DNA of 62,930 bases, filler included, from Globobulimina sp. (taxonomy: Eukaryota): NCBI GenBank assembly GCA_003354225.1. It is 27 parts of 27 records of this genome, joined end to end, with 100 filler letters (N's around TTAATTAATTAA, not from the genome) between each part and the next. Parts side by side here need not be neighbours in the genome. Positions count along the whole stretch, not along the records: positions 2,337 to 4,572 come from PIVH01007991.1; positions 4,673 to 6,908 come from PIVH01007992.1; positions 7,009 to 9,244 come from PIVH01007993.1; positions 9,345 to 11,580 come from PIVH01007994.1; positions 11,681 to 13,916 come from PIVH01007995.1; positions 14,017 to 16,252 come from PIVH01007996.1; positions 16,353 to 18,588 come from PIVH01007997.1; positions 18,689 to 20,923 come from PIVH01007998.1; 19 more parts are not named here. One strand, given 5' to 3'. The position numbers and the translations under genes were made by a program. Of this stretch, positions 2,578-62,929 are shown piece after piece (positions within the stretch are counted from its first letter, which is position 1; each line of letters starts with the position of its first letter). A model generated the notes under the pieces. That model ran no database searches, was not told the origin of the DNA, and was given only the letters and a program-made list of their open reading frames with translations.

Positions 2578-3803
2578 ATGACAAAACGCTCCGCACCAAT
2601 GGGTGATCTCACGGTGGACATAGCTCCCCCTTCTAAACGATTAAAAGTAATGACAATGGATTCATCGCAAAACAAAGTCGGCACATTGCATGAGAAAACA
2701 GTTAAGCATTCATTACTGCATTACAAGCAGCGCAAGGATCCTTAACACATAATTATTACAACAATACAATGAAACAGGGACTATCCCGTACATCAAACCT
2801 AAAATCCCCCACCATGGTGCTCGAAGGCCACACGCAGGCATTGTACGCCTGCAAATTCAGTCCAGATGGCATCAACATCGCGTCCGCCGGTGCGGGTCGA
2901 GACATTTTACTGTGGCATGTGTACGGTGAATGCGAAAACCACACTCAATTAAAAGGACATAAAAACTCAGTCTTGCAGCTATCATGGAGTGGCGGCTCGG
3001 ATTTACTATTTTCAGCCTCTGCAGATCGTACCGCAGCAATATGGAATGTGGAATATGGAGTGCGCTTAAAACAAATCAAAGACCACTCTTCCTTCGTAAA
3101 CTCCATTTATTGCACCAAACGCGGTCACCAATATTTCAGCACTGCCTCCGATGATGGCACGTGCAAAATATTTGATATTCGAATGCGAGCTCCATTGAAA
3201 AGATACGATGCGACGTACCAAGTTACTTCGTGTGCTTTGACCAACAATGCACTCAAGTTATATACGGGCGGCATTGACAATGAAATTAAAATTTGGGATG
3301 GCAGGAAATCCAGCAAACCAATGCTGAGTTTGAAATTTCATTCGGATACTATAACTTCGTTGTCATTGTCCAATGATTACAATCAACAGTATTTGTTATC
3401 CAATTCGATGGATAAAAACATTGCGATTTGGGATATTCAGACGTTTGTTAACAAGACGCAGTTGAAACAGTTGCAAGAGTTGGGGCATAAAGAGATGACT
3501 GAGGAGCTGCGACAGCAGGAAATCAATAAAATAAATTCGCGGAACAGGCTGGTGAGGGTTGTGAAGGGCGTACAGCATAATCACGAACGGTTGTTAATAA
3601 AAGCGAATTTTGGAAAGGATGATACTAAGATTTGCTGTGGTTCATCGGATCGAATGGCGTACATTTTTGATGTGGAGAGCGGCAAAATGGAGTATAAGTT
3701 GCCTGGACATAAAGGGTCAGTGAATGAAGTCGATTATCATCCGAAAGAACCGATTATTGTGTCATGTTCGAGTGATAAAAAATTGTTTTTGGGTGAGCTT
3801 TAA
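2578..3803 (+). CDS. SNRNP40: U5 snRNP 40-kDa WD40 protein, 2 exons (intron 2701-2777)
   Basis: RTSNLKSPTMVLEGH, LWHVYGECEN, YKLPGHKGSVNEVDYHPKEPII and terminal LFLGEL match U5-40K. A phase-0 GT-AG intron joins ORFs 2533 and 2769. Confidence 0.92.
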
Positions 3804-4002
3804 CTTAATAATATGTACTCTCGTATCCTTGCGCATTTTTGGCGTAACAAAATGTGCAATTTTCGGTAAAATGGCGCCAAAAAATAGCGTCCAAATAACA
3901 ACACTTTTTTTTGACGCTATACTTTTTGATGCTAATTACTTTCATTTTTTTTAGGTTGCATTCGCCGAATTATTTCATACATTAATCAAATGGATAAATA
4001 AT

Positions 4003-4458
4003 TCATGATTGTTCTTTAAATCGAACCAAATTCGAGTCACATAATTGACAAAACATTAGAGTTTTTGGATTGGGATGTTTACAAAATTCACACCAAACCC
4101 TCTCCCAATCTCTTGTGATGAGTTTCCGTGCTTTGAATTGTTTGACTTCTGGCTTTTTATCACTTGTATTGTCATCAATAGTTTTCCTAATACTCCTCTC
4201 TGAATAGCCAAGTTCCTTTTTTTTATTCTTATCAAATGCATTTTTTTCTAAATAGCCAGGGATCTTTTTTTTATTTAAACCCAATGCAATTTCAGCATAT
4301 CTATCCGCGATAACATCCAATTTTTTTGATTGTCCTTTTGCTTCACGCAATTGTTGTCTCTCTTTTTTTGTCATGTGATTCCACCATTTCTTCCGATGCT
4401 TCCTACTTGTAACACATCGATACTTTCTCTTCTTTGACCTCCAAACAGTACGTCCCAT
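4003..4458 (-). CDS. Small basic protein with C-terminal C4 zinc ribbon (RanBP2-like)
   Basis: 151 aa, K/R-rich; ends in WCEFCKHPN-x6-CQLC. Confidence 0.6.
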   Translation of the reverse strand: MGRTVWRSKKRKYRCVTSRKHRKKWWNHMTKKERQQLREAKGQSKKLDVIADRYAEIALGLNKKKIPGYLEKNAFDKNKKKELGYSERSIRKTIDDNTSDKKPEVKQFKARKLITRDWERVWCEFCKHPNPKTLMFCQLCDSNLVRFKEQS

Positions 4459-4672
4459 GATGTTCCACTGAAATACAAAAAAAAAAACTGTGTTTAAGCT
4501 CTCATTTCAAGCATGGCAGCGCCTCAGCCGCATTCTAAGTCATTCACCATATCCAAAGGTTCCAATGTACATNNNNNNNNNNNNNNNNNNNNNNNNNNNN
4601 NNNNNNNNNNNNNNNNTTAATTAATTAANNNNNNNNNNNNNNNNNNNNNNNNNNNNNNNNNNNNNNNNNNNN

Positions 4673-4961
4673 TCTGCAGTGGATCTGCGAGGATTTGAAA
4701 CAACAATTTAAAAATTGTGCAACTATTTTTAGGTATTGCACAATATAATATTTTATTGTTTTTATCAGCAATAACATGAGCCATTCTGGAGCTCTTTGTC
4801 AAAGTCAATGATAACTCGTTTATTCCGAATCCGATGTGATCCAATCTGTCTTGTTCTGCAGCCAGGTTTATTTCAAAATTTTGGCTGTAGAGATGCATAG
4901 AATCGTTATTGAATGACAAAAGTGACATAACCATGAACCCAATGGTAGGTACTGTTAACAC
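4673..4961 (-). CDS. Type II membrane carbohydrate sulfotransferase (Sulfotransfer_2 family), 5' part
   Basis: N-terminal hydrophobic stretch, then the PAPS-binding motif ILYCAIPKNSCT; runs off the contig. Confidence 0.7.
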
Positions 4962-5092
4962 AATGATGAATGCATGATGAGCTTACGAAAATGACTAAAA
5001 TTGAAAACACACACAGCTAATAATTATACATTGAAAAAGAAAAGTTCCAAAGTTGTGATTGGTTGATTATTTATCAGTTTCTATACTAAAGT

Positions 5093-5763
5093 TTATCGAC
5101 CGTGATTGCGTTTGGCTCCCATGGTAACTATTGAAGCAACTACAAATACAGCTAATGCCGCAATATCCAGCCAACAACTTGCTGCCATTTCAACATCTGT
5201 GTTATCCACATCCCAACATAAATGACCTTTTGACCTTAACATGTTAAAAAGATGCTCATTTACTGTATATACATTCAATGCAAACTAAACATGACTAAAA
5301 ATCCAGCAAACGCAGTAGCAGCAGAAATGCCTGCAAAGATAAAGAAACCACACGTTGCCTGTCGTGTACATGGAACAATTAATAATAATATGCCCAATGC
5401 TCCAAAACCAGCTGATCCAATACTTGCATAATGAAATAATTTACCAGCATTAATCTGTGTGCACGAATCGCTTGATCCTGCATTGCATTCTGCATCAATA
5501 TCAATTGTTTTTGCTAATATAACTCCATCACTGTCATCCACGCCAACATAGTCAATATTGTATCCATATATTAATGCACTTTTGCATGTATCAATTGCTC
5601 CTGAACATAAATACTGGGCATTCCTACCACATATTACTGTGCCAGCAATTGTATTTTCTTTGGTGATTTCATCCAACCGCCACGACACAATGACGCATAT
5701 GACCGCCAAAACACCAAAAAATAGGCCAAACAGAACTTTGCACATTGCATTGCCTTCACCCAT
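5093..5763 (-). CDS. Four-TM claudin/tetraspan-like membrane protein, 2 exons (intron 5235-5290)
   Basis: TM1, Cys-containing loop, TM2, TM3, then TM4 in the second exon. The 56-nt GT-AG intron restores the frame (LVM-SKGHLCW). Confidence 0.65.
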
Positions 5764-5950
5764 TGTTGTGATGAATAATAAACTTTTCAGTTACTTTTTT
5801 ACTCAAAAACAGTCCCGTTTTAACCTGGCCTCAATAGATCCTGAAGCTGATTATTTGCTTCCGTCTATTGGCTGTTTGATTGCTCTATTCCTATCAATAT
5901 TCATTTGTTGGAAATGGAAATTCCGCACTAGATCTAACAAATACAACATA

Positions 5951-6460
5951 ATGGGTAATCAAAATAATAATATTTCCTCGCCAAAAACAGAAACACAAAC
6001 ACAAAATGACTACAATGACAATGATGACAACGATAGCAAGAATGTGAGCGGCGTCAACAATAGAATGAGAATCATAGATAACAAAAAAATAGCTGATCAT
6101 CATGATAATAATAGTAAGAAATCCAAATCATTTTTTGGTGGAATTAAGGATTATTTTATGGGGACAACCAATATCAATACAAACGAAGACGATGTGAATC
6201 AATATCATAGCAAATACACAAACACTGCAGTCTTCGTAAAACTATCTGCACCAAATTATTATTTTGCGAATCAAGTTTAGTTTTTTTTTTATTAATTATG
6301 GATTATGGGTCAATGAACCGCAATTTCGCAAAATTTCTACTTTTCATTTGTTGTTTATATAAAATTGTAAATTAAATAGGGACTGCAATGGGTCGAAGAA
6401 ACAATGATTTACGACGAAGAGGGTGATGGCTATCATATTTGTATTGGCCCATTATCTTAA
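5951..6460 (+). CDS. Hypothetical, possibly N-myristoylated protein, 2 exons (intron 6275-6379)
   Basis: MGNQNN start; phase-0 intron leads to GLQWVEETMIYDEEGDGYHICIGPLS*. Confidence 0.5.
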
Positions 6461-7324
6461 CATTAATTATATTCATCTTTGACTCAACTGCCTTTTTTAA
6501 GATTTATCTCCTCATTTTTTTTCTTCATATATTTTTTTCTGTGTATCAGCTTTTTTGTTGTATGGTTTTATCATTTAAAATTTAATTGTACGTACCAATT
6601 AGTACAAGTAGTTATTTACGTCATTCACAAATTCTTAGCTATTTAATATAAAGTATCGCTCATCAAAAAGACAAAAACACGTTAATTGTCATAACAATAT
6701 TTAACTATTTTGGCTAAAGTTTCGTTTCAAAGGTTTTCCCTTCGGTTTTTGAGTTAAGAGTGCCGAAAATTAATTATCAATTTGTTCTGACTTTGTTCTG
6801 GATTTGCAAAACCAAGACAAAGTTATAACAAACACAAAACAAACCCAAGACAAACCTATAGCAAAACGTTCTTGATTTGCAAAGCGTTTCTCAGATAATT
6901 GAATAAAANNNNNNNNNNNNNNNNNNNNNNNNNNNNNNNNNNNNNNNNNNNNTTAATTAATTAANNNNNNNNNNNNNNNNNNNNNNNNNNNNNNNNNNNN
7001 NNNNNNNNTTTAAAACACAAAATAAGGTTCTATGGTTGAAACAAATGGTGAGAGGAATACATTGCGCGTGGTGTAATAAACAAGACACACAATTAAAATG
7101 TTGTAAAGGGTGCAAAAGTGTTTGGCATTGTTCTAGAAAACATCAAAAGTTTCATTGGACTGAACATCATTGTAATTAATAAATAATTATTTTTATTGCA
7201 ATATATTCGTTTATTTTTTATCGATATTCGGATTTACTTTCCTGTGCATAATGGAAAACATGTACTGTTTTTGAGTCTAAGTTAGAAATATAAATTAAAG
7301 AAAAGGTTACAATATTTTATATAT

Positions 7325-8884
7325 TTAAAGTGACGTAGAAGAGGAGCCTTGTGTTGCTTTACTAAACGATGATCTATTGTTACTATCTAAATCTTGTACA
7401 ATATTTTTGGCCATATCTTTCCCAGTATTACCAATACCAGCAAATAATCTTGATTTTGATAATCTGTTTGATTGTAAACCACCAGACATCGCAATTTTAA
7501 ATTCATCAAATGAGATAAAGCCATCATTATTTAAGTCCGCTTCGGCAAACACAATTTGCGCTTCGTTTCTGGATAATTTTAGAGCGTCCTGCAACTCCTG
7601 TAACTCAATGGTGCCATCATTATTTTCATCCATTACACCAAAACATGTATGAATTAACATTTCATCCGATGATAATTGCATGGATGCATGAACGTGGCTA
7701 AATTCTTCAAACGATAGTTTGCCATCGCCATTGGTGTCGCATTTATCCATAATAATCTTTGCTTGCTGTATTGCGTCCTTCCTATAATACCCCATACCAT
7801 TTACCAATATGGACGCTAATTCTTCCACAGTTAACTCGCCATCGCCATCGGTATCAACTGATTCAAACATTTTCTTCAATTTTTCGATATCTTTTTTTGG
7901 TGCATAATGTATCACCACTTCAGCTAATTTCTTTTTTAATTGACTTTCATATTTAAATTGTGATAAAAATCCAAGTACTTCCTGCGATAAATGCTTGTCT
8001 GACAGCTTTGTCTCTCCAGACACGAATGGATGCAATAATGCCTGTGCTGCGGATGGCCTTTTTAATGGGCTTTTATTTAATAAAGTTAGTATAAAATCCT
8101 TTAAAGTGTCTGATAACTTTGCATGCTTTGGGAATTTTACTGATTGTTTGACAATGTTTAAAAATATTCGATTATTATTTTTGCCATTAAATGGTGGCTG
8201 CCCAGTCACCAAAATGAAACATATGACACCAATCGCCCATACATCGGCAGCAAATAAAATCTTGCCAGTCCTCGATTTACCGTTCAAATATTCTGGAGCC
8301 AAATAGTACGGTGTGCCTACAATGTCTGTATAGTTCTGGTCGGCCACCACTTTTCTAGCGCATCCAAAATCAATCAATTTTAATTTCGAATCGATACTTT
8401 TGGCTTCAAATACAAAATTTTCTGGCTTCAAATCGCGATGAGCTATATTTCTTGCATGGCAATGTTGTATTGATAATAACATTTGCTTTATTAATTTGGA
8501 TGCAATTTTTTCTGAGAATTTGGTTGCTTTTACAATGCGATCAAATAACTCACCACCGCTGCACAATGATGTGGCGATATAATAATTATCCGAATCCATA
8601 TAACAATCAATAAAATTTATTATGTTGTGATGTTGTTTCAATTCCTTTAAAATAGTTACTTCTCTTTCAAATAAATTGAGATTCATTTTATTTTTCTTTG
8701 ACATTTTTTTTAATGCGACAACATTTTGTGTTGATATTTGAAGACATTCTCGGACTTCACACGACGCGCCTTCTCCTAAAACACGAAGCACTTTAAATTT
8801 TTGTGTCATATCTTCGCATTGATTCTCTTTCGGTACAAGCTCTGAAAGAGGAGTTCTCGTTAGGCACGAACAAAAAGCACCCAT
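7325..8884 (-). CDS. CDPK: Calcium-dependent protein kinase with four EF hands
   Basis: MGAFCSC acylation motif, kinase motifs (HRDLKPEN, DFG, APE) and EF hands DTDGDGEL, DTNGDGKL, DENNDGTI, DLNNDGFI. Confidence 0.95.
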   Translation of the reverse strand: MGAFCSCLTRTPLSELVPKENQCEDMTQKFKVLRVLGEGASCEVRECLQISTQNVVALKKMSKKNKMNLNLFEREVTILKELKQHHNIINFIDCYMDSDNYYIATSLCSGGELFDRIVKATKFSEKIASKLIKQMLLSIQHCHARNIAHRDLKPENFVFEAKSIDSKLKLIDFGCARKVVADQNYTDIVGTPYYLAPEYLNGKSRTGKILFAADVWAIGVICFILVTGQPPFNGKNNNRIFLNIVKQSVKFPKHAKLSDTLKDFILTLLNKSPLKRPSAAQALLHPFVSGETKLSDKHLSQEVLGFLSQFKYESQLKKKLAEVVIHYAPKKDIEKLKKMFESVDTDGDGELTVEELASILVNGMGYYRKDAIQQAKIIMDKCDTNGDGKLSFEEFSHVHASMQLSSDEMLIHTCFGVMDENNDGTIELQELQDALKLSRNEAQIVFAEADLNNDGFISFDEFKIAMSGGLQSNRLSKSRLFAGIGNTGKDMAKNIVQDLDSNNRSSFSKATQGSSSTSL

Positions 8885-9621
8885 TATCTATAAACAAGAA
8901 GGAAAAACGATAAAACAAATGTTATATTTTTGACGTATTTTAATATTTCATAATTTTAATCAAAGAGGAATCGATGTAATTATTTTTTTTGCACAATGAT
9001 ACAACGATCGTTATTCAAGTATAGTCAAATCATTTGTTATCAAACGTTAATATTTATTGGATATGATAAACAAATCCTGTTTGCCGAGATATCGTGGCAT
9101 GGAATTTTATCATTTTCCTCTGAAGAATAACATCCTCATAACAGTGTTCATTAATATTTTTCTTCGCTTTCTGAAGAAATTCCTGTTGCGTCAAAACAGC
9201 ACCACGTATTATATTATAGTCCTGTTTTCCAAACCTTTTCTTATNNNNNNNNNNNNNNNNNNNNNNNNNNNNNNNNNNNNNNNNNNNNTTAATTAATTAA
9301 NNNNNNNNNNNNNNNNNNNNNNNNNNNNNNNNNNNNNNNNNNNNCTTCACTGTCGTCATCATTAATATCGGTATAATGTAACGTTAATGCGCTGCTTCCT
9401 TGTCATGCATCAACTAGGAAGTACTCCATCGCCAGGGATTATCGGGTGACCAGTGGGTGATGAAGATATACATATTATAAGTAACAGAAAGTATAATAAG
9501 AGGATCAGATTTCAAATTAAAAAAAAACATTTAATATACACGTGCTGCATAAAGAACCTTCCAAGTTATGTTATGTTATTTGCACAGATTGTTTGCAATG
9601 TAAATGTTTGGTTATACACAG

Positions 9622-10400
9622 AAAGAGGTACAGGACCCTCCATTCCTTATTATTGGCATATTTCAGCAGAAGAAGAATTAGAGCGTCTGCATAGTGAAAT
9701 AAGTAAACCAGAAAATATTGAAAAGAATTCAGATCCAAGAACAAGAAATGCGATTCCTGCTACAGCTGTGGGTTTGTTTTGTTTTGTTTTGTTTGCATCG
9801 GCCACCACTGCAGTGACATGTTGTTATTTTATTTGTTGAATAGTTGGTAAAAGCCCTGTTGATAAAGGTATGTCATTTCATATTGTCATATCAAAGAAAA
9901 TTCTGTAGAAATCTATAATTTGCTGATTAAGAATTTGGAACAGGTTTGCTTATTTGTGATTTTTCTTTTATTTGTTTATGCATTTTTTGATTTGTTTATA
10001 AGAGCATACTCGAAAATCAGTGATTGGATACAGGTTTATTTGATTTTTGTTTATTTACATAACTCTTTTTATATAATGAATGAGTTTAATTGTGTTTGTA
10101 GAATGGATAATGGAATGAGTAAAAAAGAAGCCATGGAAAAACCATGTTGAGTTAACATATATAAATTAATTATTTGTTAATGAATCCATATGCATTTATT
10201 TCATAGTTACGCAAAAAGAATACGAGCAACTTATGAAAAGTGAAGCTTTGGTGACGGATCCAGCAAATCCAGACAAACACTTAGTACCCAAATCCAATAC
10301 AAAGTCCTTTTCAATTATTCAATCTTTGGCAATAACAATTGCTTTATTTATTATCGGAATTTCGTCGTGCTATTTGCTACCAATTATGGAATTTAAGTAA
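9622..10400 (+). CDS. Multi-exon hypothetical protein with C-terminal TM (tail-anchored); 5' structure unresolved
   Basis: Several short GT-AG introns; the last (10146-10206) is frame-checked. The final exon ends SLAITIALFIIGISSCYLLPIMEFK*. Confidence 0.5.
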
Positions 10401-15108: not shown

Positions 15109-15148
<40 letters not shown>

Positions 15149-16252
15149 GCAAGAATCAGTAGGGAGTAACACTAAAATATGTGCAGTTAAATGTGTGCCA
15201 TATAAAAACAAAAAAGTTTCGTTTGCTCCAATAATGATTCAAGAACCGGAAGAAAAAGGGATGGCGCTCGAGCATGAGAAGGAAGATAGCATTTCATCCT
15301 CAGATTCACTGCAAATCAAAACCGTCGATGATTACCATGCGGTAACACATGATGACAGAGACCATATTGATAATATGATCCATGTTATTGATAAAATGAA
15401 TAAATTGGAACTAAAATCTAGATCACCATCGACCACTGATGCTGATGGACGCGTTGATATCATCGAATATTATGATAAATCTGTTGGGAGCAAACGAAGG
15501 CGAACACAAACCATTGCCTTGGATACTGGCAAAATATCAGAAGAGGACGTTGCAATGTTACTGGATTTAGGGATCAATTGTTTTGTGAAGGATAATAATG
15601 GAATGACTGCGATTCATCATTACATGAAACAGAAAAAAATAAGCTTTAGCATTTTGAAGAAAATGGTCGCTCATAATATGGAAGAAAGGAAGTATGCTGA
15701 ACAGGAGGATGGATGTTCACTGCGTCATGATATAAACACTGTGGATAGATACAATAAAACAGCGTTTATGTATTATTTGGAGCATAATGAATGTATTTCT
15801 GCGCAAGATTTGGAAGTATTGATCGAAATGGGATTTGTGGCGAGCAAGGATATGATTGATATAGTTTAGTTTGCACAGAAACGTGTTGCTATTTTTATAT
15901 TTTATCTGTTTTTTTATATGAAAAACTATACAGAATGGAAATAGTGCATTTCATTGTATTTGCAAGAACGAATTGGTGCAATACACGGTGATATTATATT
16001 TGTTTGGTTGCTTGGAAGAGCAAACAGATTGGAATGAACTTAAGAATTACGTTGAGTATATATTACAAAATGTTTGTAAATTACAAAATGTTTTTGTTAA
16101 TATTTAGCAAAATGAGACACCGTTTATGTTATATTTATTACATAATGCTGTGTTAACATTGGATGGCGTCAATGCTTTGAAGAAGAAAGGGTTTGCAATG
16201 GACTGTAAGTCGAAAAGCGAGGATGATGTGTTTAGTAAATATATATGCTGTA
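14019..16252 (+). CDS. Ankyrin-repeat protein with N-terminal TM segments and polyQ; partial at both ends (introns 15864-15933, 16051-16107)
   Basis: Repeated motifs GKNAF, GLTPL, GMTAIH, NKTAF; spliced exons continue with NGNSAFH and NETPFM. Confidence 0.8.
15108..15152 (+). repeat. (CAA)13 CAG CAA trinucleotide repeat encoding Q15
   Basis: Read directly in the sequence. Confidence 0.95.
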
Positions 16253-16354: not shown

Positions 16355-18588
16355 GAATATAAACTACTTAATAATCCCATACTAAAATATGAAATAAGAT
16401 CCGTTATAAAAAACCTAGATACACATAAAGCGTATGGACCGGATAGGATCCATAACCAAATGATAAAGCACGGTGGAGAGCCCCTCATTGATTGCCTGCT
16501 CCCTTTGTTTAATAAATGTATGCAAAAAGGGATATTCCCGAGCTATTGGAATTTCTCCCACTTACTACCGATTCCCAAACCAAATAAAGACCACAGCAAC
16601 CCTAAAAACTACAGACCCATTGCAGTCTCTTCGTGCTTAGGTAGGGTTTTTGAGAAAATCTTAGCAAATAGACTCCAACATTTTTGCGTTGAGAACAGAA
16701 TATTTGATAACTTCCAATGTGGTTTTCAAATAAATCGTTGCTGTGACGACGTCTTAACAACTTTTATAACTGACATACAAACTGCTTTCGATATGGTCAG
16801 TGATACTGACGTTGTATTCACAGACTTCTCCAAAGCATATGACAGTGTGTGGCATAATGGCTTATTATATAAATTAATTAAAAACAACATAAAAGGAAAT
16901 ATTCTAAATGTACTTGCTTCTTTCATACAAACAAGATATACTAAAGTCATTGCTAAAAAAGCAGAGTCCAATTGGGTCGCTCAACCGATTGGAGTCCCAC
17001 AAGGATCTGCATTATCTCCTATCCTATACATAATATTTACAAATGATTTTAAACTTAAATTCCCGAACTTTGTCCATTTTGCTTGCTTTGCAGATGATAC
17101 TGCATTCTGGACAAGCCCGGGAACAAAAGATCCAATGCGCTATAAATTCCTCCAAAAAGAAATAGATAACTTTGGCGATTGGTGTATACAATGGCAACTA
17201 ATGATAAATCCCTCCAAATGCCTATCCATGAATTTCTCCCATAGTAATCCTACCAAACTCCACCCAAAATATACAAATAAAATTGATCCAAACACAAATA
17301 AACAAATACGTCTAAGTAAATACAGCATCCATTCCATTCCAATAAAATATGAAAGAACTGCCAGATATCTTGGCTTATGGTTTGATGAACGCCTCAATTT
17401 CCTGGCCCATTTTGCCAAAATAAGAGCAAAAACAATGCGGAGTTATTGGAGACTGTTCTTTTCAATGAAATCTGGAATAAAACTAACCCCGATCTCCATA
17501 ACAATTCTATATAAATCCCTCGCTCGATCCAGAATAGAATACGGCTTATCCCATTATTACCCATATGACTCCACCAAATTATTAAAAATCCTACAAAATA
17601 AATTCCTCCGCTTGGCCATTCCATGCCGATTGGACTCACCAATGGATATTATTCAATTCCTCCTAAACATTGAACCAATAGAATGTAGAGCTCATTACCT
17701 AACAATGAGGCAACTCGCCAGAGCTTACTATAATGATAATTACCATCCATTGAATAAAACATACAAATCCCTAAATAAATATAAAAACACAATCCAATCC
17801 TACCAATACAGAAAAACAAACAAAAATAAAACAAATAAACTCACGAACCTTAATAAAAACCCTCTAATAATCGCGACAAAATTCTGCCAAAATAACAAGG
17901 AGAATAAAGCGCTAACACTGGATATCAATAAAATGAATAAAAAACAGGTCACCTCCTCACCAACATACAACTTAAAATGCTTACCGACGAACTTTGACGT
18001 CAGTACATCTGCAGCAAATCCATCACTGTCCATTGATGATAATGTTACCATTGCGTTTACGGATGGATCATGTGACCCAAATCCAGGCAAAGGAGGAGCT
18101 GCTGCATATATCCCATCCCAACCATCACATCCAAGTGCGTATAAACAAACATATTATTTCAAAATCCCAGTAACAATAACCACTGCAGAGACTGAAGCAG
18201 TCCATATGATCCTGAATTATATATTAAATCTCCCAAATAACTCCCATATACACTATAAAATATATATTGATAATCTCTCCCTTCTCCAATTCATAAATGG
18301 TCAAAATTACCCCAAATATAACGACACTAAAATATTGATTGAAAACATTTTTATAAAACTACTGCAGATAAAACAAAACAAACCCAACATATTCCTCTCA
18401 TTTATAAAAATTAAATCGCATAATAATAATAAATTCAATGACGAAGTTGATCGTTTGGCCAACTTTGCAGCTAAACATACAAAATATGACCAAACATTGT
18501 ATAACGAGATATCGTATAATACGACAATAACTCAATTACATAAACAAATACGATATCAATGGAACCAAAAATGGATAAAACGAAACAC
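16355..18588 (+). mobile_element. Non-LTR retrotransposon ORF2 (RT + RNase H), uninterrupted across the whole contig
   Basis: RT motifs: KAYGPD, YRPIAV, QCGF, DFSKAYD, GVPQGSALSP, FADD, YLG. RNase H motifs: FTDGS, AETEA, IDN, KSH, NDEVD. Confidence 0.96.
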
Positions 18589-18688
18589 NNNNNNNNNNNN
18601 NNNNNNNNNNNNNNNNNNNNNNNNNNNNNNNNTTAATTAATTAANNNNNNNNNNNNNNNNNNNNNNNNNNNNNNNNNNNNNNNNNNNN

Positions 18689-21023: not shown

Positions 21024-21743
21024 GAGGCAGCTGATATGATAGATGGTACAATCGGATCATCAGAATTTTTACCACCTAGCTCAATTACACCTGGTTTTAG
21101 ATGTTCTGCTGAAGGACACAAATTAAGTTATTATACATTTTCGCGAGCTATCGATGCTCTGCAATTGACGGCATCACTGCGCCATACACATTGTAATTAC
21201 ACACAAACGACGCATGTATCCACTACTGGCGGATTTAGGGTTGAATCTAGTCAACGTGTCGACGGCTCATTGTTAGGAAGCAAAGTGAAGGAACATGGTC
21301 CTGTAATGTATGAATTTGACAGCAATTGCAAGTTATCAATGATCGCATTTGCGAGAGGAGAACAACACGCAGCACAGGCATATGGAGCAAGGCATGCAGA
21401 GAGAACATTGCAATTATTTGGTTTAACATCATCAGATTCAGAGTTGAGTACAATATGTAATTATATATCTACAATTAAACATATATGTTTTTAAAGTTCG
21501 GTGGATGAGAACCCAGACTCAGACTCATCAGATGGTGCAGCAGCTTTATTGAGTGCATATGATATCTATCAGTGGCCAGATAAAGTTATAGATTTGCATT
21601 CTGATGATATTAATTATAATTTGTTCTCTTGGTCACTGTTACTGATCTGCGGATTGATGTTATTTTGTATTTTGTTACTTTGGATTCGAAAATGTAGAAA
21701 CGATTCGAAAATGGAAACATTTGCGCCGGATTCGTTACCGTAA
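21024..21743 (+). CDS. 3' part of a single-pass membrane protein (intron 21443-21496)
   Basis: The intron joins ORFs 21036 and 21501; TM segment WSLLLICGLMLFCILLLWI is followed by RK. Confidence 0.65.
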
Positions 21744-24016: not shown

Positions 24017-25270
24017 ATGTTGTTGGCTCTCAATCTCGTCAGCATGATAACATTCGCAACCAAACTTGAGTGTAATGATGACTCTAAATTCAGAATTGTT
24101 CAATTTACAGACACTCATTTTGGTGAATCGCATATCAGTAATTACATGACAACATCATTGATGAATAACATATTAGATGCTGAGAAACCTGATTTAGTTG
24201 TTTTATCAGGTGACAATATCAGTGGGTATACATGGACTGGCAAAAAAGGATGGTTTGCACATTTATGGAAACAAATAGTTTCTCCGATGATTAATCGAAA
24301 TATACCGTGGATATTTACTGCTGGCAATCATGATGCGGAAGGCGAATGGAACAGATCGCAAATCTTTCAACATGACATGGATAAGTATTCCAATGTAGGC
24401 AGTTTAACACAAATTGGATATATGGATGATGAAACTGGTCAGAATATATATTTTGTAGATGTTTTTAATAAAAATATGACAACAGCCAGAATATGGATGA
24501 TCGATTCTGGAATGAAAGACTGTAACAATGATTATGATTATATGGGATGTTTACAAACCGAACAAATGGAATGGTATTTGCAGCAAAATCATGACATACC
24601 GGGTATTATTTATATGCATATTCCACCGTTACAGTTGTTAACGTATTATAACAGTAACAAATATCCAATTATTGGTGAGTGGAATGGCAGCATTGCAAAT
24701 ATGCATTGTTTTGATGAAACAAATTTAAATAATAAAAGATTTATTGATGAGATACTGTTGGAAAATTCTGATATTATTGCAATGTTTCATGGCCACGAAC
24801 ATTCATCTGATTGGTTGCTGTTATACGAAAACGATTTGTTGCTTGGTTTTGGCAGAAAAAGTGGTGAAGGATGGATGATTGGAATTGATATTGATTTTGC
24901 AAAAATATCTGGCGTTCGAGTGTTTGAATTTGAATGTAATAATCCAAAACAATGGAAAACGTGGATTGGAGATAAATATATGAATAGGATTCAAGTTACA
25001 TCTTTTGATGAAATGAAGAAACAACAAATGTATAAAAAAGATGATGAGGATGTTGTTTGTGAGGAAAATAGTAACAAAGAAATTAAATGTTCATCTGCGA
25101 GGCATTGGGAAGGTTGGAAACCAAATGTTGAGGAACAATTTAAACATTGGCTGACACTATATATTGTGGATATTTTTGATTTAGTTTGCAGGTCGAGATT
25201 GTTATGGTTTGTTGATTACTATATTTGGGATATTGGTATCAGTGATCGTGAAGAGAGTAAGAATGAATAA
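24017..25270 (+). CDS. Secreted calcineurin-like metallophosphoesterase (Dcr2/purple acid phosphatase-like)
   Basis: Signal peptide; QFTDTHFGE, SGDN, GNHD, HIP and GHEH motifs. Confidence 0.88.
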   Translation: MLLALNLVSMITFATKLECNDDSKFRIVQFTDTHFGESHISNYMTTSLMNNILDAEKPDLVVLSGDNISGYTWTGKKGWFAHLWKQIVSPMINRNIPWIFTAGNHDAEGEWNRSQIFQHDMDKYSNVGSLTQIGYMDDETGQNIYFVDVFNKNMTTARIWMIDSGMKDCNNDYDYMGCLQTEQMEWYLQQNHDIPGIIYMHIPPLQLLTYYNSNKYPIIGEWNGSIANMHCFDETNLNNKRFIDEILLENSDIIAMFHGHEHSSDWLLLYENDLLLGFGRKSGEGWMIGIDIDFAKISGVRVFEFECNNPKQWKTWIGDKYMNRIQVTSFDEMKKQQMYKKDDEDVVCEENSNKEIKCSSARHWEGWKPNVEEQFKHWLTLYIVDIFDLVCRSRLLWFVDYYIWDIGISDREESKNE

Positions 25271-26723: not shown

Positions 26724-26793
26724 ATCCCACGCCAGGATTTGAACCTGGATTACTTGCATAAAAGCTGTGCTCTTCCAATTGAGCTACGTGAGA
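26724..26793 (-). pseudogene. tRNA-like sequence (possibly Lys-TTT derived) with a broken anticodon arm
   Basis: Acceptor TCTCACG/CGTGGGA, D arm GCTC-AATTGGAA-GAGC and T arm CCAGG-TTCAAAT-CCTGG are intact. Only 20 poorly pairing nt lie between the D and T arms. Confidence 0.75.
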
Positions 26794-33301: not shown

Positions 33302-33309
33302 GACCGGTG

Positions 33310-35033: not shown

Positions 35034-36089
35034 TTTCCGATATTATTTCGAATGAATGCTTCATTCCAAAAACTAGGACCAAGTGTTTGTTCAACAAATT
35101 CTGTACAGATCGCATTGAATGATACATTTGTGGAGTTATTAATGCTATGCTGGGACATTAATATTACAATTTTATTAATTTGTACTGTTTTAATCTCCGT
35201 TGGATCTACGGCTGCTCTTAATTCATCCTGTAATATAATTATCTCTTTTTCCATTGCATGTGGTGTCCGTGTTGGTGTTGGTGTAGTTTGCGTTTGTTGT
35301 GGTTGCTCGTTTGATGCATCATCCATAGAATCGGATTGTTTTATTATCGTTGTTTGCATATTTGTTAATTTGATTGGTTCCAATGTTTGTTTCTTCATTT
35401 CTGACGGTGTTGGTCGATCAGTTTGTGGTTTTTTAGGTTGATGCCGTAACATATAATCGTCGTATGTTTCTGTAAGTGTTTCAAAATTGGAATATTTTGA
35501 TTTGTAATAATTTTGCTTGCCACCTAAATATTAAATATTGGGTTTGCGACAAATTTGTTTTGGGTTTTTGTAATTTTGTATTTTGTCTAATGTGAAAACG
35601 CAAACTTAACCGAAACATTTATCTTCGTTCGATACGATATCAATCCAACCATTTTGTACGCCGTCGTGATCAAATAATTCAATGGGTAATGTTTTGTTAT
35701 ATGAAGCAGCCAAATCATGTAATGAGATGTCTGCGGATTTTGCGATTTTATCGTGATTAATTTTGAGATAGAATGAAATAGAATGCGCATAACATGGAAT
35801 ACGAAGATCTCCAATATGGGGGAAATAAATCCCACTCCATTTGTCAACTAATTGCCCGTTAGGAACTTCATAAATTAAACCATCTAACCATTCAACTTCA
35901 GCTTTAATGCTGTCTCCATGATGAATATGGCTGTATGTATGGCGTTAAATTTGATTGTGAAGATAACAGATATCGATTTAATAACTTGTAAGAATATAAA
36001 GTGATGTCGAAATGACTGATACGTATCGAATCCAAAGACAATGAATGTTGTATTGCACACACGAAAAGTGCAATGAGTAAAGGCTGCAT
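35034..36089 (-). CDS. Secreted multi-exon hypothetical protein, 3'-partial (intron 35524-35610 frame-checked)
   Basis: Signal peptide MQPLLIALFVCA. An internal exon (LDGLIYEVP...EDKCF) is spliced to the ORF containing 35452. Confidence 0.55.
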
Positions 36090-36282: not shown

Positions 36283-37170
36283 TCACACAGTCGCCACAAA
36301 AAATAAAGCGGAACAAAGCATAATGGTCAATGTAACAATTGTCATTAAAACTGGCATATTATTTAACAGAATCGGAGCTGCTGATTTTGTTGGAACTGTT
36401 TCTGTAATATCCTCCACTGACACCGTACCATTTGATTTTTTTTGTTGCACAGTCTTTGAAGATTCATCATCCATTTCTTGTTTTATTTTCTTTGCAATTT
36501 TCTCTCCTTTATTACCAACAGTAATATCTAGTTAATGGTATACAAATATGTCAAATCTTGCACGTATACAAATATCGGAAAAATAAAACAACACTAAACT
36601 CATCCATGTGCACAAACTATCTCCTGTCTTCATAAATGATTTGTTTGTTCTTTTCTGACACTCTCTTAATTCATATTCATTTTTCCATTTTGTATAAATA
36701 TCATATTTTTCATCCTGAACCACAAAGGGCCACGAACAAAATGAGCATAAACAGTTCATTAGATTTTGAAAATGAATTGACTCAAAACAAACGAATTTGG
36801 TTTCTAACTTTCGCCAAATACTTTGTTGCGACCAATACCATTGTATTGTATCATGCTGCGGTGGGCGTGCTATTAAACTGATGTTTCGTATATAATCTGT
36901 CATTTCATCCTCGTGTTTTGAACATTCCTTTTCTGCCATTTCACCAAATAATTCAATCCCATCACATAATTTATCATATATGTTAATATTGCGTTGAATT
37001 AACTTGGTTTCCTCCAGATAGGAGTTCACTATGTTTTTGCGTTCTGGTGTGAATATTTTTGTTGCTTTACGCAATGCATTTCTTAAATTGTGTACATCTT
37101 CATTTCCATTTTGCGATTGTTCAGCGCCGCTGCTGATTGATATACACAGAAGCAAACAAATAAACAGCAT
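36283..37170 (-). CDS. Signal peptide + C-terminal hydrophobic tail (GPI-anchored or TM) hypothetical protein, probably 2 exons
   Basis: MLFICLLLCISISSG start; the downstream ORF ends in a hydrophobic tail. Confidence 0.55.
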
Positions 37171-40645: not shown

Positions 40646-41851
40646 ATGATACCAACTGAATTTAGACCGATGCGCGGACCAAATATTACAATGAATAAAG
40701 ATGTGTGGACCCGGAAAGGCCGTGTCTTTATTGGCTTGCTATTTATCTTTGCTTTGTGGTGTATTGGTGCTGAATTAATACTGTATCGCCACTACAAATC
40801 AAGCAAACGTTTTATTCGAAGCGTAAATCCGAAACCAAAAGCTCATCATTCTCCAAGTCAACAAACTATAATAATCCCTCCAAAATGCGGCATGGCAAAC
40901 AACTCATTTATTAAATATTACGGCGAAGCATTAAATCCACCGATTTACAACCAATTACATCGCAATAATGCGGAGAAAAAAGACCCACGAATGACGGTGT
41001 TTAATGCGTATGGCTGCAGCAACCATAAAAAATATTGTTTCGGCGAACCGCAATCAATTCCTTGTTGCACAAAGATATTATTTGATATTTGGCATGCTTT
41101 TGATAAATACCTTACAAAGCATGGCGTTGAATATTCGCTGAGATGGGGTTCCCTGTTATTTGCTGTGCGAAACGGCCAACACATGCCATGGGATGGAAGG
41201 GACATCGATATTGGATTCATGCGACCGGAGGAAAACGCACACGAAGCAGTGGAGGAATTCCTCAGTGATTATAATCTGGCACTGGATCCACTGTATGACC
41301 ATCATATTGTGGATACGTCTGTTTTCTATAAGTTGCATCATGAAAAGCATGGTTATCCCGATCCAGAGCAGAAGTTTTGTTTTGTTGACTTTGAGTTTTC
41401 GTTCGCTGTCAAAGAGTTTGAATATGAGGATACATTGACACTGTCCGGCATTCCATTCTTTGACATGGGTTTCAATGCAGATGCTGCGGATGGAATTGAC
41501 ATGGAATTATCCCACGGTTTGCCAATGATTCCTGTCAGTTATTATGGGTCGAATATGATGGAACCACCGAGGCAAATGTATGTTTATCCGGATTTCTATA
41601 AACATCTCAACAGAAACTATGGTCACTGGGAATGGCTCGATATTGCACCGTATTGGGTTTCTGATCAACAATTAGAAGTTTAGTAATTACATATATATGT
41701 TATTTGTTTTGTGGTTTGCATCTTTTGTTGGTTTATGATTTTTTAGTACCATGGGTTTAACAGAGCGAATATGAGCGGATACTGGCAACAAATGAAAAAG
41801 AGAATGGTTAAAATGTTGGGCGATGATCCTGCAGTTTACCATTTTTTATGA
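40646..41851 (+). CDS. LicD/fukutin-family nucleotidyltransferase-fold type II membrane protein (intron 41678-41746)
   Basis: N-terminal TM; GSLLFAVRNGQHMPWDGRDIDIG. Confidence 0.85.
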
Positions 41852-49533: not shown

Positions 49534-51268
49534 TTAAATCATCATCATTCCATCTCTTTCTTTGTTTTTACCAATATTAACATTTTCAATATCGACTGTT
49601 TCCTGTCCTAATACCTCCGTTGACATTTCATCCATTTCATGTGATATCTCATCACGTTTTTCTTGCGGCGCAGCATCCAATGATCGTACATCTGCCATTT
49701 CTATAGAAATCTCAATATCGTTTTTATCCATTCTTCGATTCTTCCTTTGCACCCAGCAATATATAACAACAGCTAATAAAATACAGAAAAATAACAAAAT
49801 AAGTGTGTATACAACGACTGATACAGTGGTTCGAACCGCAAACAATGAATCACCAAATGCTCCTTCATCAACAACAGTGGCTGCATCCGCAACAGCAATC
49901 TGATTACAACGTAATTCCAATACAGCATTAATAGTATACAACTGATGATCCCTGGTCTCGCATAATGCATTGCTTTCCTCTGACACAGCAATACTAATTT
50001 TTAATGTCTGTCCAACATAAACAGGAGTCGAATACAATCGTGTATTTGTAAAACAACTTTCCATCTTTCCACATTCATTAGTCACGTCAGTGCGCGTCCC
50101 GCAGTCTGCTATCAATGTATCGTTGGCTTCGACTGTAATATATTCCGAAGGGCCGTCAACATCAACCTTTTCATATTGGAAAGTAAGTCGTGGATTACCA
50201 CAGTTATAGTCAGCAAATCTATATTCAACATTAATTAATGATATATCGCTGTCTTCATAATTTGTAACTGTGGTAGTGGTTAATTTTTCTGTTACAGTTT
50301 CATAATAACATTTATCAACTTTGCAGGATGAATCAGTTGGAGACGATGTTGGAATCGCTGTTGGATTCGTGGTTGGTTCCGTGGTTGGTTCCGTGGTCGG
50401 AATCGCTGTAGGAATTACTGTTGGATTCGTGGTTGGTTCAATACTGGGGATTGTTGTTGGTATTGCGGTTGGATTATTTGTCTCTGCTCCACAATGTAAT
50501 TTTGCACCGGCATTTATTGAATATGCTGAATGGTTGTTATTTTCGCACAGTGCATTGACGAAATTGGATTGTATTATCGTGATTTGATAGGTTGAATTCT
50601 CATCAATTGAATCAATATCTAATTTATATTCTGATAAACATCCAGCAAACACACCACATACATTGCTAACATTACCACCACAGTTTCTTAGTAAAGTATC
50701 ATTATCGTCATAAATGAGTAGATATTCCATATTCGAGTCATAATCAATCTGTTTTAATATTATGTTACGCAGATGTTTCTATATACACTAATTCACAATA
50801 CTTAACTCGTTCGTATTCAAAAGAAAACCGAGGCTTTTGGCAGGGCGCACCAATGATATTATAACAAATTCCCAACGATTTAGCAGTGTTATCATTAATA
50901 TTGTTAATGACAGTATTGGTGGTTACTTGTTCATAGTTAGAACCTATCGCATCTACAGAATAACAAACATCCGAGCTACATTCGCATGGATTTGTTGTTG
51001 TCGGCGTGTCCATTGTTGTTGACATATCCATCCATGGATCGAAGGTGGATGACATATTAATATCGATGGTTGGCATTTCTGTGGGAATCGAATTGCCACC
51101 GCATTGAGTGGAGTTTTTCGGTGTTTCTGTATATGATAGCAACGAATTCGAACAATTTTGCACATCACTCCGTATTTCACAACTTTGATAATTGGCACAT
51201 TGTTCATCAGAATACCTTAAGATTTCAGCACCAAATGATGAATTTAAACGACTGTCATCAAATATATT
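49534..51268 (-). CDS. Type I membrane protein with tandem Cys-containing domains and PT-rich linkers; 5'-partial (intron 50749-50806)
   Basis: Two copies of CxxPR..F.YE..D.D..EY...CG...CG...C...NALC...Y.INA.L.C, a PTxx repeat and a TM segment near the C-terminus. Confidence 0.8.
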
Positions 51269-57675: not shown

Positions 57676-58266
57676 ATGAGTAACTCCAGCATGCACAACA
57701 AAACAAGACCTGTGATGATTGTCGTTTGCTTTTTTATTATAGCTGCAATGTGTAATTCTGTTCAATTGAATCAAATTAAAAATGATAAACAAGAGTTGAC
57801 ATTAGAAGCTTATGAAGTGGCCTCAGAGGACATTATGCATCAAATTGAGGAAGAAGCACTACATTACATTGATTACAACAAGAAACAAGAAAGAACTGAA
57901 TCTGTTTTTTCATTTGGAGCAGACAACAATGCCATTAATGATGCGGAGATAGCTAGTTGCAGCAGTTAAGAGTGTTACATATGGACAAATCACTTGATAT
58001 TTTCCTTACATATACAGCGGATTCAAACCATTGCCATCCATCCAGAAAATGCAATATGTTTTGTAATTGTAATATTGAAATGGAAGATGGATATGTTTAT
58101 AATATGGCTGTTGTAACGGATTTTGTGTTTACAATTACACAGAAATCATTTGTTTGGCCAACAGAATACGAATATAATGTAACATTTTGTAGAAATAATG
58201 TTGTTTATGATCGCAATAAATGTGGTTTTGCGGCCAGTATTACTCAGTATGAGACTGCAAATTATC
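57676..58266 (+). CDS. Secreted or lumenal protein, possibly MRH (mannose-6-phosphate receptor homology)-like; 3'-partial (intron 57965-58017)
   Basis: Signal/TM segment; YEYNVTFCR..KCG..ASITQY pattern. Confidence 0.45.
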
Positions 58267-60204: not shown

Positions 60205-60219
60205 CACGTATGGTTTGCA

Positions 60220-60380
60220 TCTTGGTTCAGAATCCCGCCTCTTGTGGTATATTGGCCATATTATAGCCACCTAATGTATTAAAGCCCCTTGAATTATATT
60301 ATACTAAGCCCTTAAGCTATAGTCACTGAACATCCTCTAGTCACACTTCAAGGAGCCTCTCTGTATAACTCTTGGTTCAG
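60220..60380. mobile_element. 139-bp intergenic segment flanked by 11-bp direct repeats (possible TSD)
   Basis: TCTTGGTTCAG at 60220-60230 and 60370-60380. Confidence 0.45.
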
Positions 60381-60427
60381 TGCTGCAGTAGATTTCATAT
60401 CTTGAGGTAAGTGTGTTTTTTAAAGTA

Positions 60428-60598
60428 ATGGCCGAACTTTTGGAAACCAAAGAAAATGCTTTAAGCATTCAAATTGCATCTGATTTGCATTTAGAATTCC
60501 CCGGCACTTATGATAAAATGAAAACAATTGTGCCTGAATCCCCCGTGTTAGCATTGTGCGGAGATATATGTTGGTCTCAAAAAGAAACATATGTTACA
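60428..60598 (+). CDS. Calcineurin-like metallophosphoesterase, 5' part
   Basis: IQIASDLHLEF and LALCGDI. Confidence 0.8.
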
Positions 60599-60836
60599 NN
60601 NNNNNNNNNNNNNNNNNNNNNNNNNNNNNNNNNNNNNNNNNNTTAATTAATTAANNNNNNNNNNNNNNNNNNNNNNNNNNNNNNNNNNNNNNNNNNNNGT
60701 GTGATAGCAATTGTATTCATTATCAATGTAAATCTTCTACAATCGATACAACAGCCACGCACGGATTACTTCTTCAGAAGTAATGAAACAACTGCGTACT
60801 TAGAAATATTTCAGTTTTAATAATTTTACAAAAACG

Positions 60837-61430
60837 ATGAAACAATGGTATCGATGGATTATTTGTGTGATTATATGTGTAAATTCAAGTTGCTGTACTA
60901 TAAATCGTTTTATATTGGTACCAATCCAAGATCAAGTAATGGATTGGTATGATATCAATGCTGTGAAATACAATTTATTAATGACATTATATGCTTGGCC
61001 AAATGTTGTTTTTTGTATACTATTCGGTATATTGATCGATAGATTTGGCGTAAGAAAGATTTTATCATTTGTGTGGTGGTTAGATTTTATCGGATTATCA
61101 TTGATTGTCTATAGTTGTAACATAAAAAATTATACGTTATTATGTGTGGGACGAACAGTGGTCGGAATGGGCAATGAAGGATTACAATTATCATTGAAAT
61201 TGTATGCAATCTCTTTTTTTAAACCAAACGAATACGGCACAGTCTTCGGAATATTTTCTGCTTTTGGATCAATTGGAAGTGCCATAAACACATACATTTC
61301 ATATCAAATATATTCAACATTTGGCATAATTTATGCAATGTCTTTCCCATTGATTATTGCACCATTTTTTTTCATTCCTTTATTTATATTAATGTTTGAT
61401 AATAGATTTATTTTGCAAAAGCCAGCATAA
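60837..61430 (+). CDS. MFS transporter (MFSD1-like), N-terminal half only
   Basis: YNLLMTLYAWPNVV, GILIDRFGVR, GRTVVGMGNE; about six TM segments, then it stops. Confidence 0.8.
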   Translation: MKQWYRWIICVIICVNSSCCTINRFILVPIQDQVMDWYDINAVKYNLLMTLYAWPNVVFCILFGILIDRFGVRKILSFVWWLDFIGLSLIVYSCNIKNYTLLCVGRTVVGMGNEGLQLSLKLYAISFFKPNEYGTVFGIFSAFGSIGSAINTYISYQIYSTFGIIYAMSFPLIIAPFFFIPLFILMFDNRFILQKPA

Positions 61431-62929
61431 AATGCCGGTCGTTTGCGTCCATTCCATTACGTTTCCACTATAACAACATTGTAAATAATCATCAGGATCC
61501 ATACCACACATTTCTTTAAAAATGCATCCGGCGCCAGTATTGTAAAATTTATGAGCCAACGATTTGGCAGATTTTAATGTCTCAGCCATATCCATCCATT
61601 TACCTAATTTGCCAGCAATATTACTTAAAACATGGACAAAGCCGCCCGTACTCCTTGAAGCCCAATTATTTGCCACCAAATTGCGAAATAATTTTACTTT
61701 ATTTGTATTATCAGCTGCACAAACAATAAATAAATATTTTTTATTTGTGAAAATAAATAAATAAACAAACATAACTCAATGTAACGTCTAATATACATCC
61801 TTGAATAATATATGCACCAATAACATCTTTGGTGACTTCCACTAATTCTCTCGCAGTTTTTTGTAATCCCAAACAAGTAATATCCAAAATAAATATAATG
61901 CCATTATCTCCCAAACGAATAATATGCAATGCTTGACCTGTTTAATATGTATATTTGTAAAAAACAAAACATTATTTATTTCAAAACAAAAACAAAAAAG
62001 TTAAATAAATATACAAAAGATGATCGGAAACGATCGGAAAACATTTTGTACATTTAAAAAATAATAAAAAAATATAAACTAAACTTAAACGCCGTTTCGT
62101 GCACTCATCCACGTGCAAACCAAAATGCTTGTTTGCAACAATAATACCATCCATTCGATTTTGTAATTGATTTAAATGATTATCCATAATTTCACCGGTT
62201 AATTTTATATATGGTGGTGCTGTTGGTTTGTCGTTCCATGCAGAACAAAAAATAAATATTTCTTTTAATAAATCACCAAATTCTGCCGTCTCCCATACAT
62301 TCCAACTTGACTGTGTCATCAACACAAAATTAAAAAAATGTGCATCTAATTTTTTCTGCGCGGCAAGTTTCTCTGCAAATTGTTGGCAGAAACTGTTCAT
62401 TTTAAAATTGTTGGCAGAAATTGTCTCTGTTTGTATAAAATATAATTTGTATAAATATACATAATCAAAAAATATTTGTAAAAAAAACACCTTTTTTAGG
62501 TTCCTTTGGGTGATCACCGTTTGAGGACATATCCAAAGAAGGCAATGAAAGATTTGGCACTGCGAACGGCCGATTTAATGAAGTAATAACAAGTCCCGGC
62601 TGCGAATATTTATTATTATTTTTGATATCATTCTCATCGTCATCACTTTCAGCGAGATCCATATTATCTAAATTATACAAATTATATTTATCGCTGCCAG
62701 CACCTGAATGTGTGCATAAATTACCTAATTTACCTAATTTTAAGTCCGCGTTATTTGTAATATTTACTATGATATTATCATTAACATTTCCTGCACCACT
62801 TAAAAAACCATATTCTTGTCCACCAATCACATCCGCTGGATGTCCATAAATACGACGGCATCGTTTGGGATGACCATTACCCACAGTCATAATATCTTGA
62901 TACAACGAGAATGGCACTCTCTTCGCCAA
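61389..62929 (-). mobile_element. Spliced hAT-superfamily (DUF659-like) transposase or transposase-derived gene (introns 62427-62490, 61938-62090, 61715-61775)
   Basis: The spliced product reads PPYIKLTGEIMD...LHVDECTKRRQALHI...KTARELV...VTLTDNTN...GFVHVLSN, matching hAT DxWT, TA, TDN and CxxH positions. Confidence 0.65.

Follow-up and report, generated by a model that had tools for sequence, protein, structure and literature searches.

In a 62,930-base stretch of DNA (the window; 27 separate contigs of 2,232-2,236 nt each, in descending order, G+C 30-38%) from a foraminifer other than Reticulomyxa filosa, introns with ordinary GT and AG ends recurrently begin with the heptamer GTTDAGT, in which D is A, T or G. 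Our reading, to which we give a probability of about 0.55, is that this heptamer is the host's main 5′ splice-site (donor) consensus for ordinary spliceosomal introns and that the helix formed with U1 small nuclear RNA (snRNA) is displaced by one nucleotide. The observation itself is confirmed, and the proposed mechanism is plausible. What is new is a lineage-specific, transformed donor consensus that would depend on a register so far known from exceptional sites only.

A first-pass annotation of the window had claimed 22 introns, of which 14 donors were itemized and are examined here, the other eight being itemized nowhere. Each of its 11 GTTNAG donors is found where it had been placed, on the same strand; nine read GTTNAGT, the exceptions being 2701 (GTTAAGC) and 57965 (GTTAAGA), and one (35610) has G at exon position -1. 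The strings of three additional donors with T at +3 also stand: 59884 (+) reads GTTAAT as given, while GTTATGT at 61775 and GTTTAAGT at 62090 are present on the minus strand only, a strand that had been left unmarked. For the last of these, a GTTTAGT donor lying 6 nt further downstream (62084) keeps the frame equally well. Donors of the GTTDAG type are real and lie on 10 of the 27 contigs, which bears out the proposal of a major donor class recurring over independent contigs.

Direct evidence for splicing

Reads were compared on contig 3 alone, which was picked for its two claimed donors in two genes; this choice is biased towards the claim, and any further intron on the contig would likewise have been visible. 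Run X4 is DNA, with an even depth of ~5-6. Runs X1, X3 and X5, from three studies, are guessed to be RNA; none is on record as RNA, and the guess is backed by their exon-only, very uneven depth (0 to ~9,300). Contigs of all three RNA-like runs join position 5232 to 5289, skipping 56 nt. With the cut moved by 2 nt, this is a phase 2 intron at 5235..5290 on the minus strand, with donor GTTTAGTTTGCA at 5290 and an acceptor ending ..GTTAAG, and its removal keeps the frame. The same runs join 6274 to 6380, skipping a 105-nt phase 0 intron with GT..AG ends at 6275..6379 (+), with donor GTTTAGTTTTTT and acceptor ..AAATAG; the X3 joint lies in its 643-nt record 11. The DNA run is colinear across both introns (record 15, 5118-5501, and record 16, 5660-6420), so that two of the two introns on contig 3 are present in DNA and removed from transcripts. 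The RNA joints read GT..AG once an ambiguity of 1-2 nt is placed, no further joints occur on the contig in the three RNA-like runs, and both introns begin GTTTAGT, precisely as they had been placed earlier from the genomic sequence. Over 5055-6556, spliced X1 and X3 contigs show many single-position differences from the window (95-99% alike), whereas the X5 contigs are nearly identical to it; X1 and X3 represent related strains or sibling species in which both intron positions are conserved.

Protein conservation fixes a third intron. In the U5 snRNP 40K (WD40) gene, a 77-nt phase 0 intron at 2701..2777 (+), with donor GTTAAGC and acceptor ..AAACAG, is the best of 14 frame-keeping GT-AG pairs, scoring 2483 against 2364 for the next. 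The junction aligns without gaps to five of five orthologues (P0002, P0003, P0005, P0006 and P0008), all of which carry an N-terminal stretch whose coding sequence in the window lies upstream of the long U5-40K frame. All three GTTNAG introns open to direct test are real.

Placement of the motif at coding-frame ends

The heptamer GTTDAGT stands out by its placement and not by its frequency. Because GTTAAG, GTTGAG and GTTTAG contain stop codons that could create such a pattern, the same words with another first dinucleotide served as controls. A transition from coding sequence to a stop was defined as 50 open, coding-like codons with a stop no more than 75 nt beyond them; 10 of 83 GTTNAG copies lie at such transitions, compared with 27 of 1160 copies of the other XYTNAG words (p=8e-5). 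Of the 22 GTTDAGT copies, 13 lie within 105 nt of a coding-like frame end; among control heptamers that share the embedded stops, 13 of 263 do (p=3.4e-10). The former test is the cleaner of the two, since the distance of 105 nt was set after the list of sites had been seen. The 13 frame-end copies include 7367(-) and 42472, for which no intron was found, and omit 16051, whose upstream exon is short.

GTTCAG is near a coding-frame end in 0 of 19 cases and GTTDAG followed by a base other than T in 4 of 42; canonical GTRAGT is so placed in 4 of 24, none with a solved intron. The first-pass annotation had staked its claim on an excess of AG at +5/+6, and this excess is present: 17 of 201 GTT sites near frame ends carry it, compared with 66 of 2080 elsewhere (p=0.001). 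The position tests also yielded three candidates that are new, 36599(-), 16230 and 62084(-).

The donor consensus

The 11 donors placed earlier, together with 36599, 62084 and 16230 (7367 and 42472 being excluded), form a logo of 14 sites that reads A/GTTDAGT(W)T, the slash marking the exon-intron boundary. Exon position -1 is A in nine, T in three, C in one and G in one (binomial p=0.02 for A against an expected 0.33), and -2 is A in 6 of 14. GTT at +1 to +3 and AG at +5/+6 are invariant (14/14) and carry no independent weight because they define the class; the information lies only in the other positions. Position +4 is T in seven, A in four, G in three and C in none, +7 is T in 12 of 14, +8 is A in six, T in six and G in two, and +9 is T in 10 of 14. 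TDAGT thus occupies +3 to +7 in 12 of the donors; TDAG, which belongs to the class definition, is present in all 14. The textbook normal-register GTRAGT is found at 0 of 14 donors, as is the U12-type donor RTATCCTT.

The introns are short (53-147 nt), with a G+C content of 18-34%, and end in YAG or AAG. Of 13 introns, seven have a yTRAy branch-site match in their last 40 nt, and four have no match at all. Three donors have GTT(T/A)AGTTTGC in common.

Pairing with U1 and rival explanations

The textbook donor reads AG/GURAGUAU, and the textbook U1 5′ end is AUACUUACCUG. After a shift of one base, 9 of the 11 positions of the logo match the complement of this U1 end, and in the motif A/GUUDAGUWU only intron +2, which would face C8, is a misfit. 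In the displaced arrangement, the U1 5′ end would pair with A/GUUDAGU(W)U one nucleotide away from its usual position. Intron G+1 would lie opposite C9, the nucleotide that normally faces exon -1, intron +3 to +7 would occupy the places normally held by +2 to +6, and the later U6 and U5 steps would fix the cut at GU. While the introns, the motif and its placement are observed, we infer each of these snRNA steps. The prevalence of A and rarity of G at -1 fit a G+1 opposite C9 better than one opposite C8 with a looped-out U, and the lack of C at +4 fits what a U or pseudouridine partner would tolerate.

A displaced helix could be accommodated in either of two ways. With slightly better than even odds within this reading, the host U1 would carry a matching substitution at position 8, C to A or a similar change, or else the insertion of a single base to the same effect; alternatively, a textbook U1 would tolerate the U.C mismatch. 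Duplex folding with textbook U1 places G+1 opposite nucleotide 9 in 7 of the 14 donors, while 4 have it opposite nucleotide 8. When 89 one-step variants of the U1 11-mer are compared, C8A gives the best separation between the 14 donors and 1200 background GT sites, with an area under the curve of 0.96 compared with 0.67 for the textbook sequence. It lowers the mean energy to -6.9 from -3.4 kcal/mol and yields an unbroken helix in all 14 donors, G+1 being on nucleotide 9. Rfam searches of the window returned one tRNA at gathering scores and, at E<=1, the tRNA plus two chance miRNA-like matches, with no snRNA, U1 and U6 included, among them.

Several points weigh against the displaced helix as a general consensus. 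For 11 of the 14 GTTDAG donors the support is frame continuity only, and the register is deduced from 14 donor sequences. The GTTDAGT count is at chance, with 22 copies compared with 19.3 +/- 4.4 in shuffles. Four copies (29614, 38263(-), 42472 and 23900) lie within continuous coding sequence; because these are apparently unused as donors, the motif is not sufficient and further context must decide its use. Other donor forms are present, namely GTTATGT at 61775, GTTAATT at 59884, and GTGTTTT or GTTTTTT at 62490/62488 (indistinguishable), so that in 60 kb the 14 GTTDAG donors stand alongside at least three other forms. The predicted pairing with textbook U1 averages -3.4 kcal/mol for the donors compared with -2.2 for background GT sites, and it is weakest (-0.4 to -2.9) for the commonest form, GTTTAGT, to which both RNA-proven donors belong. 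The C8A change is a prediction and not evidence, since it was fitted post hoc to the same 14 donors. Moreover, most lineages whose donors have changed retain a textbook U1 (Roy and Bowser, bioRxiv 10.1101/2022.06.08.495308). Precedent cuts both ways, with U1 changed in Entamoeba and textbook in most others, which is why the displaced helix is held at the probability given above and a matching U1 change, within that reading, is taken as slightly likelier than not.

Two other accounts accept the donors and differ in how they are recognized. A textbook U1 might bind them in a bulged or asymmetric-loop register, with G+1 and U+2 on C8 and A7, one U (+2/+3 or +3/+4) looped out, and AGU at +5 to +7 on nucleotides 5 to 3. 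We consider this unlikely, although the intronic portion of the motif agrees with it and an oligonucleotide with the core GGUUUAGUAUA, an example of asymmetric-loop 1 (+3/+4), bound U1 better than a control (PMC4856993). It would also agree with the 4 of 14 donors in which folding sets G+1 opposite nucleotide 8, and with the textbook U1 of most lineages with odd donors (bioRxiv 10.1101/2022.06.08.495308). Yet this register leaves C9 and U10 free for a G at exon -1 and an A at -2; of the 14 donors, only one has G at -1 and nine have A there, with A at -2 in six. The predicted energies of GTTTAGT donors are near background, and the literature searched holds no precedent for a bulge as the default of most introns. 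It seems less likely again that U1 pairing is minor and that the motif is shaped by U6 (its ACAGA box), U5/Prp8 or proteins, with T at +3/+4 pairing with U6 and AGT at +5 to +7 accommodated through a looped base or a changed U6. The weak predicted pairing with textbook U1, T at +3 in 14 of 14 donors and T as the commonest base at +4 (7 of 14) speak for such a role, and U at +3/+4 could raise pairing with the U6 ACAGA box, as has been argued for the GUUUGU donors of Entamoeba (bioRxiv 10.1101/2022.06.08.495308). Against it, only a bulge would let A at +5 and G at +6 pair with ACA in the U6 box, and the whole logo, including A at -1 and T at +7 and +9, mirrors U1 and not U6. U6 is, in addition, among the most conserved RNAs.

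The remaining accounts question the pattern itself, and both are very improbable. The stops inside GTTAAG, GTTGAG and GTTTAG (TAA, TGA and TAG) could have led to an artefact of placement, in which the GT nearest to a frame-ending stop was picked. In 6 of 12 donors read in frame, the frame-ending stop does fall within the motif, and the heptamer count is at chance; the controls that carry the same stops are nonetheless rare at frame ends, and embedded stops leave T at +7 and A at -1 unexplained. For three introns this account is refuted, by two exact RNA joints and by one junction fixed through orthologues. Even less credible is that the introns are copies of one mobile introner with its own conserved 5′ end, an idea suggested by the 11-mer TTTAGTTTGCA, which occurs three times against 0.13 expected, twice at intron starts. 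The interiors of 13 introns (minus the first 12 and last 6 nt) give a best local score of 18 compared with a shuffle maximum of 17, and intron sizes vary from 53 to 147 nt; because the interiors are unrelated, these introns did not arise by copying of a mobile intron. The 11-mer occurs for a third time at 25180-25190 (+), inside a metallophosphoesterase open frame and with A instead of G before it (ATTTAGTTTGCAGG).

Comparison with known systems

A shifted U1 register is reportedly due to Roca and Krainer (2009) for mammals, and bulge registers to Roca (2012) for human sites. Both shifted and bulge/loop registers are established for rare human sites (PMC4856993, PMC9311317). The mammalian shifted-register sites resemble the donors described here in being of the GUUAAGU type, with all U1 pairs moved by one position and the cut at GU (PMC4856993, PMC9311317). 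They are rare exceptions, whereas in this host the form is the commonest recognizable donor type, with A, U or G at +4 and U the commonest. Human sites read through a bulge (+2/+3) or asymmetric-loop 1 (+3/+4) are likewise of the GUUUAGU type, with AGU at +5 to +7 bound by textbook U1 (Tan et al. 2016, PMC4856993). In contrast to the 14 donors here, nine of which have A at -1 and one of which has G, those registers keep a paired G at exon -1.

Among protists, Entamoeba provides the closest parallel, with GUUUGU(U) donors and a U1 (AACAAAC) that has co-evolved with them (Roy and Bowser, bioRxiv 10.1101/2022.06.08.495308). Like the present host, it is an intron-poor protist with T at +3 and a donor preference that extends to +7; its atypical consensus is lineage-wide, as that of the present host may be. 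It differs in having GT at +5/+6, which amounts to two substitutions, whereas AGT at +5 to +7 in this host is a displacement, with adherence that looks looser. Budding yeast, Giardia and Trichomonas, whose +4U donors (GUAUGU) are read by textbook U1, also have a lineage-specific consensus that does not fully match U1 (bioRxiv 10.1101/2022.06.08.495308). In the normal register those donors carry a single mismatch; the donors of this host would have three or four unless the register moves by one. That preprint names six lineages with transformed donors, foraminifera not among them, and reports only Archamoebae (Entamoeba and Mastigamoeba) with a U1 changed to match its donor (bioRxiv 10.1101/2022.06.08.495308).

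For foraminifera, two genome papers call introns 'canonical' at their splice sites (PMC6783311, PMC3079666), and no description of a GTTNAGT donor was found in the literature searched, whose coverage did not extend to the R. filosa genome paper and its supplements. A published intron classification assigns R. filosa 6,244 'major' and 29,850 'major-like' introns, or 17% 'major', and Entamoeba dispar 491 and 2,306, also 17%; the corresponding counts are 103,357 and 59,611 for Bigelowiella natans and 9,411 and 5,926 for Dictyostelium (PMC11347168, Table S4). Because this profile concerns another species and its classes are not donor logos, it serves as a lead only.

It is tentatively possible, at somewhat less than even odds, that Foraminifera as a group splice most introns with a U1 helix one nucleotide from the cut, either through a position-8 U1 change (predicted 5′ end AUACUUAACUG) or through a textbook U1 with a shifted register as its default, and that the R. 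filosa intron-class profile reflects the same phenomenon.

Further intron models

All 15 itemized intron models have GT..AG ends and join long open frames. A 61-nt phase 1 intron at 10146..10206 (+) has donor GTTGAGT, the sole GT compatible with its acceptor, and is otherwise placed by frame continuity only; a homologue search with the small product downstream of 10146 found none. One gene on contig 7 contains two introns and a candidate third donor. The first intron, 15864..15933 (+; 70 nt, phase 0), begins with GTTTAGTTTGCA; besides continuing the frame, its junction restores an ankyrin-like hairpin motif. The second, 16051..16107 (+; 57 nt, phase 0, donor GTTGAGT), is placed by continuity of frame and repeat motif only. 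The new candidate donor, GTTTAGTAAAT at 16230..16252 (+), stands at a coding-like frame end on a contig that stops before any acceptor, and a rival donor, GTAAGTC, lies beside it at 16205. The contig-7 frame has one close homologue, P0001 (50% identity, from a 9.2-kb contig), which ends at the position of donor 15864; among representatives it has only distant ankyrin matches, 16 at E<=1e-3. P0001 ends two residues past the donor position, with Val-Glu-stop. This end may fit read-through of a GTNGAR-T donor at the 15864 site, and a natural end shared by both proteins is also possible.

Frame continuity only places several other introns: 21443..21496 (+; 54 nt, phase 2, donor GTTGAGT), 35524..35610 (-; 87 nt, phase 1, donor GTTAAGTTTGCG), 41678..41746 (+; 69 nt, phase 0, donor GTTTAGTAAT), 50749..50806 (-; 58 nt, phase 0, donor GTTAAGTAT) and 57965..58017 (+; 53 nt, phase 1, donor GTTAAGA). 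The new 72-nt intron at 36528..36599 (-; phase 1, donor GTTTAGTG) comes from the position test together with frame continuity. At 61938..62084 (-) lies a 147-nt intron with donor GTTTAGTTTAT; the site at 62090 is in the same phase and both keep the frame, so that 62084 is preferred on consensus alone. The 61-nt intron at 61715..61775 (-) has a non-AG donor, GTTATGTTTG, and is likewise placed by frame continuity only. A scan of all dinucleotides for 'valid splice solutions' gave 143 of 5318 for GT (2.7%), within the 1.7-3.8% of the others, and was dropped for lack of specificity.

Genes in the window and identity of the host

Successive contigs are separated by spacers of 44 N, TTAATTAATTAA and 44 N, and genes on either side of a spacer are not linked. 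Pfam searches of 234 stop-to-stop frames (>=60 aa) identify eukaryotic genes, mostly as long single frames, from which we take the host to be intron-poor. These include protein kinases, two G-alpha proteins, RCC1, a FAT domain, the U5 snRNP 40K WD40 protein and an E2 variant, along with retrotransposon reverse transcriptase and RNase H. In these frames no claimed intron splits a Pfam-matched domain. The E2-variant gene has a natural end, and an N-terminus for the G-alpha gene on contig 14 was looked for and not found.

A rhizarian host related to Reticulomyxa had been proposed. The rhizarian assignment agrees with the closest U5-40K matches, which are foraminiferal transcriptome proteins with 77-83% identity: the frame at 2706-3800 is 83, 79, 77 and 69% identical to the transcriptome-derived P0002, P0003, P0005 and P0006. 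P0003 carries the label MMETSP0190, which has been assigned to Rosalina sp. (PMC6783311). A relation to Reticulomyxa at the species level is contradicted by P0010, the orthologue named R. filosa, which is only 59% identical, and it is because of this gap between 77-83% and 59% that the host is taken to be another foraminifer. The annotated N-terminus of P0010 (residues 1-60) is unrelated to the stretch common to the window and five other foraminiferal orthologues, and its first exon may be mis-modelled in the R. filosa annotation. In metagenomes, the U5-40K protein matched two loci only, both non-foraminiferal (34-36% identity).

Other features of the window were noted in passing. Contig 8 (16355-18589, +) is one frame open throughout that encodes reverse transcriptase and RNase H, and thus a retrotransposon. 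A G6PD fragment at 32699-34057 (-) lacks the first ~117 profile positions of the N-terminal domain, its 5′ half being absent. Its contig is richer in G+C, with a retroelement-like frame upstream of the fragment, which may be either a truncated copy or a gene whose long intron carries an element. The tRNA gene at 26724-26793 (-) is the sole Rfam match at gathering score. At the end of contig 3, the last ~135 nt (6773-6908) have a depth of 4,700-9,200 in the DNA run X4, compared with ~5 elsewhere; because of this excess, and because several DNA contigs break or rejoin there, the segment is a high-copy repeat.

Implications

The pairing of the donor consensus with the U1 5′ end is among the most conserved in eukaryotes, and few lineages are known to have departed from it. 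If the displaced helix is correct, the place where U1 binds would be separated from the place of the cut for most introns of this host, which would make the separation open to comparative and biochemical study. A change at U1 position 8, if true, would add an independent case of U1-donor co-evolution beside Archamoebae. The R. filosa annotation lists 11,851 'non-canonical' introns among 50,607 (PMC11347168, Table S4), and gene finders trained on GTRAGT will misplace the ends of foraminiferal exons.

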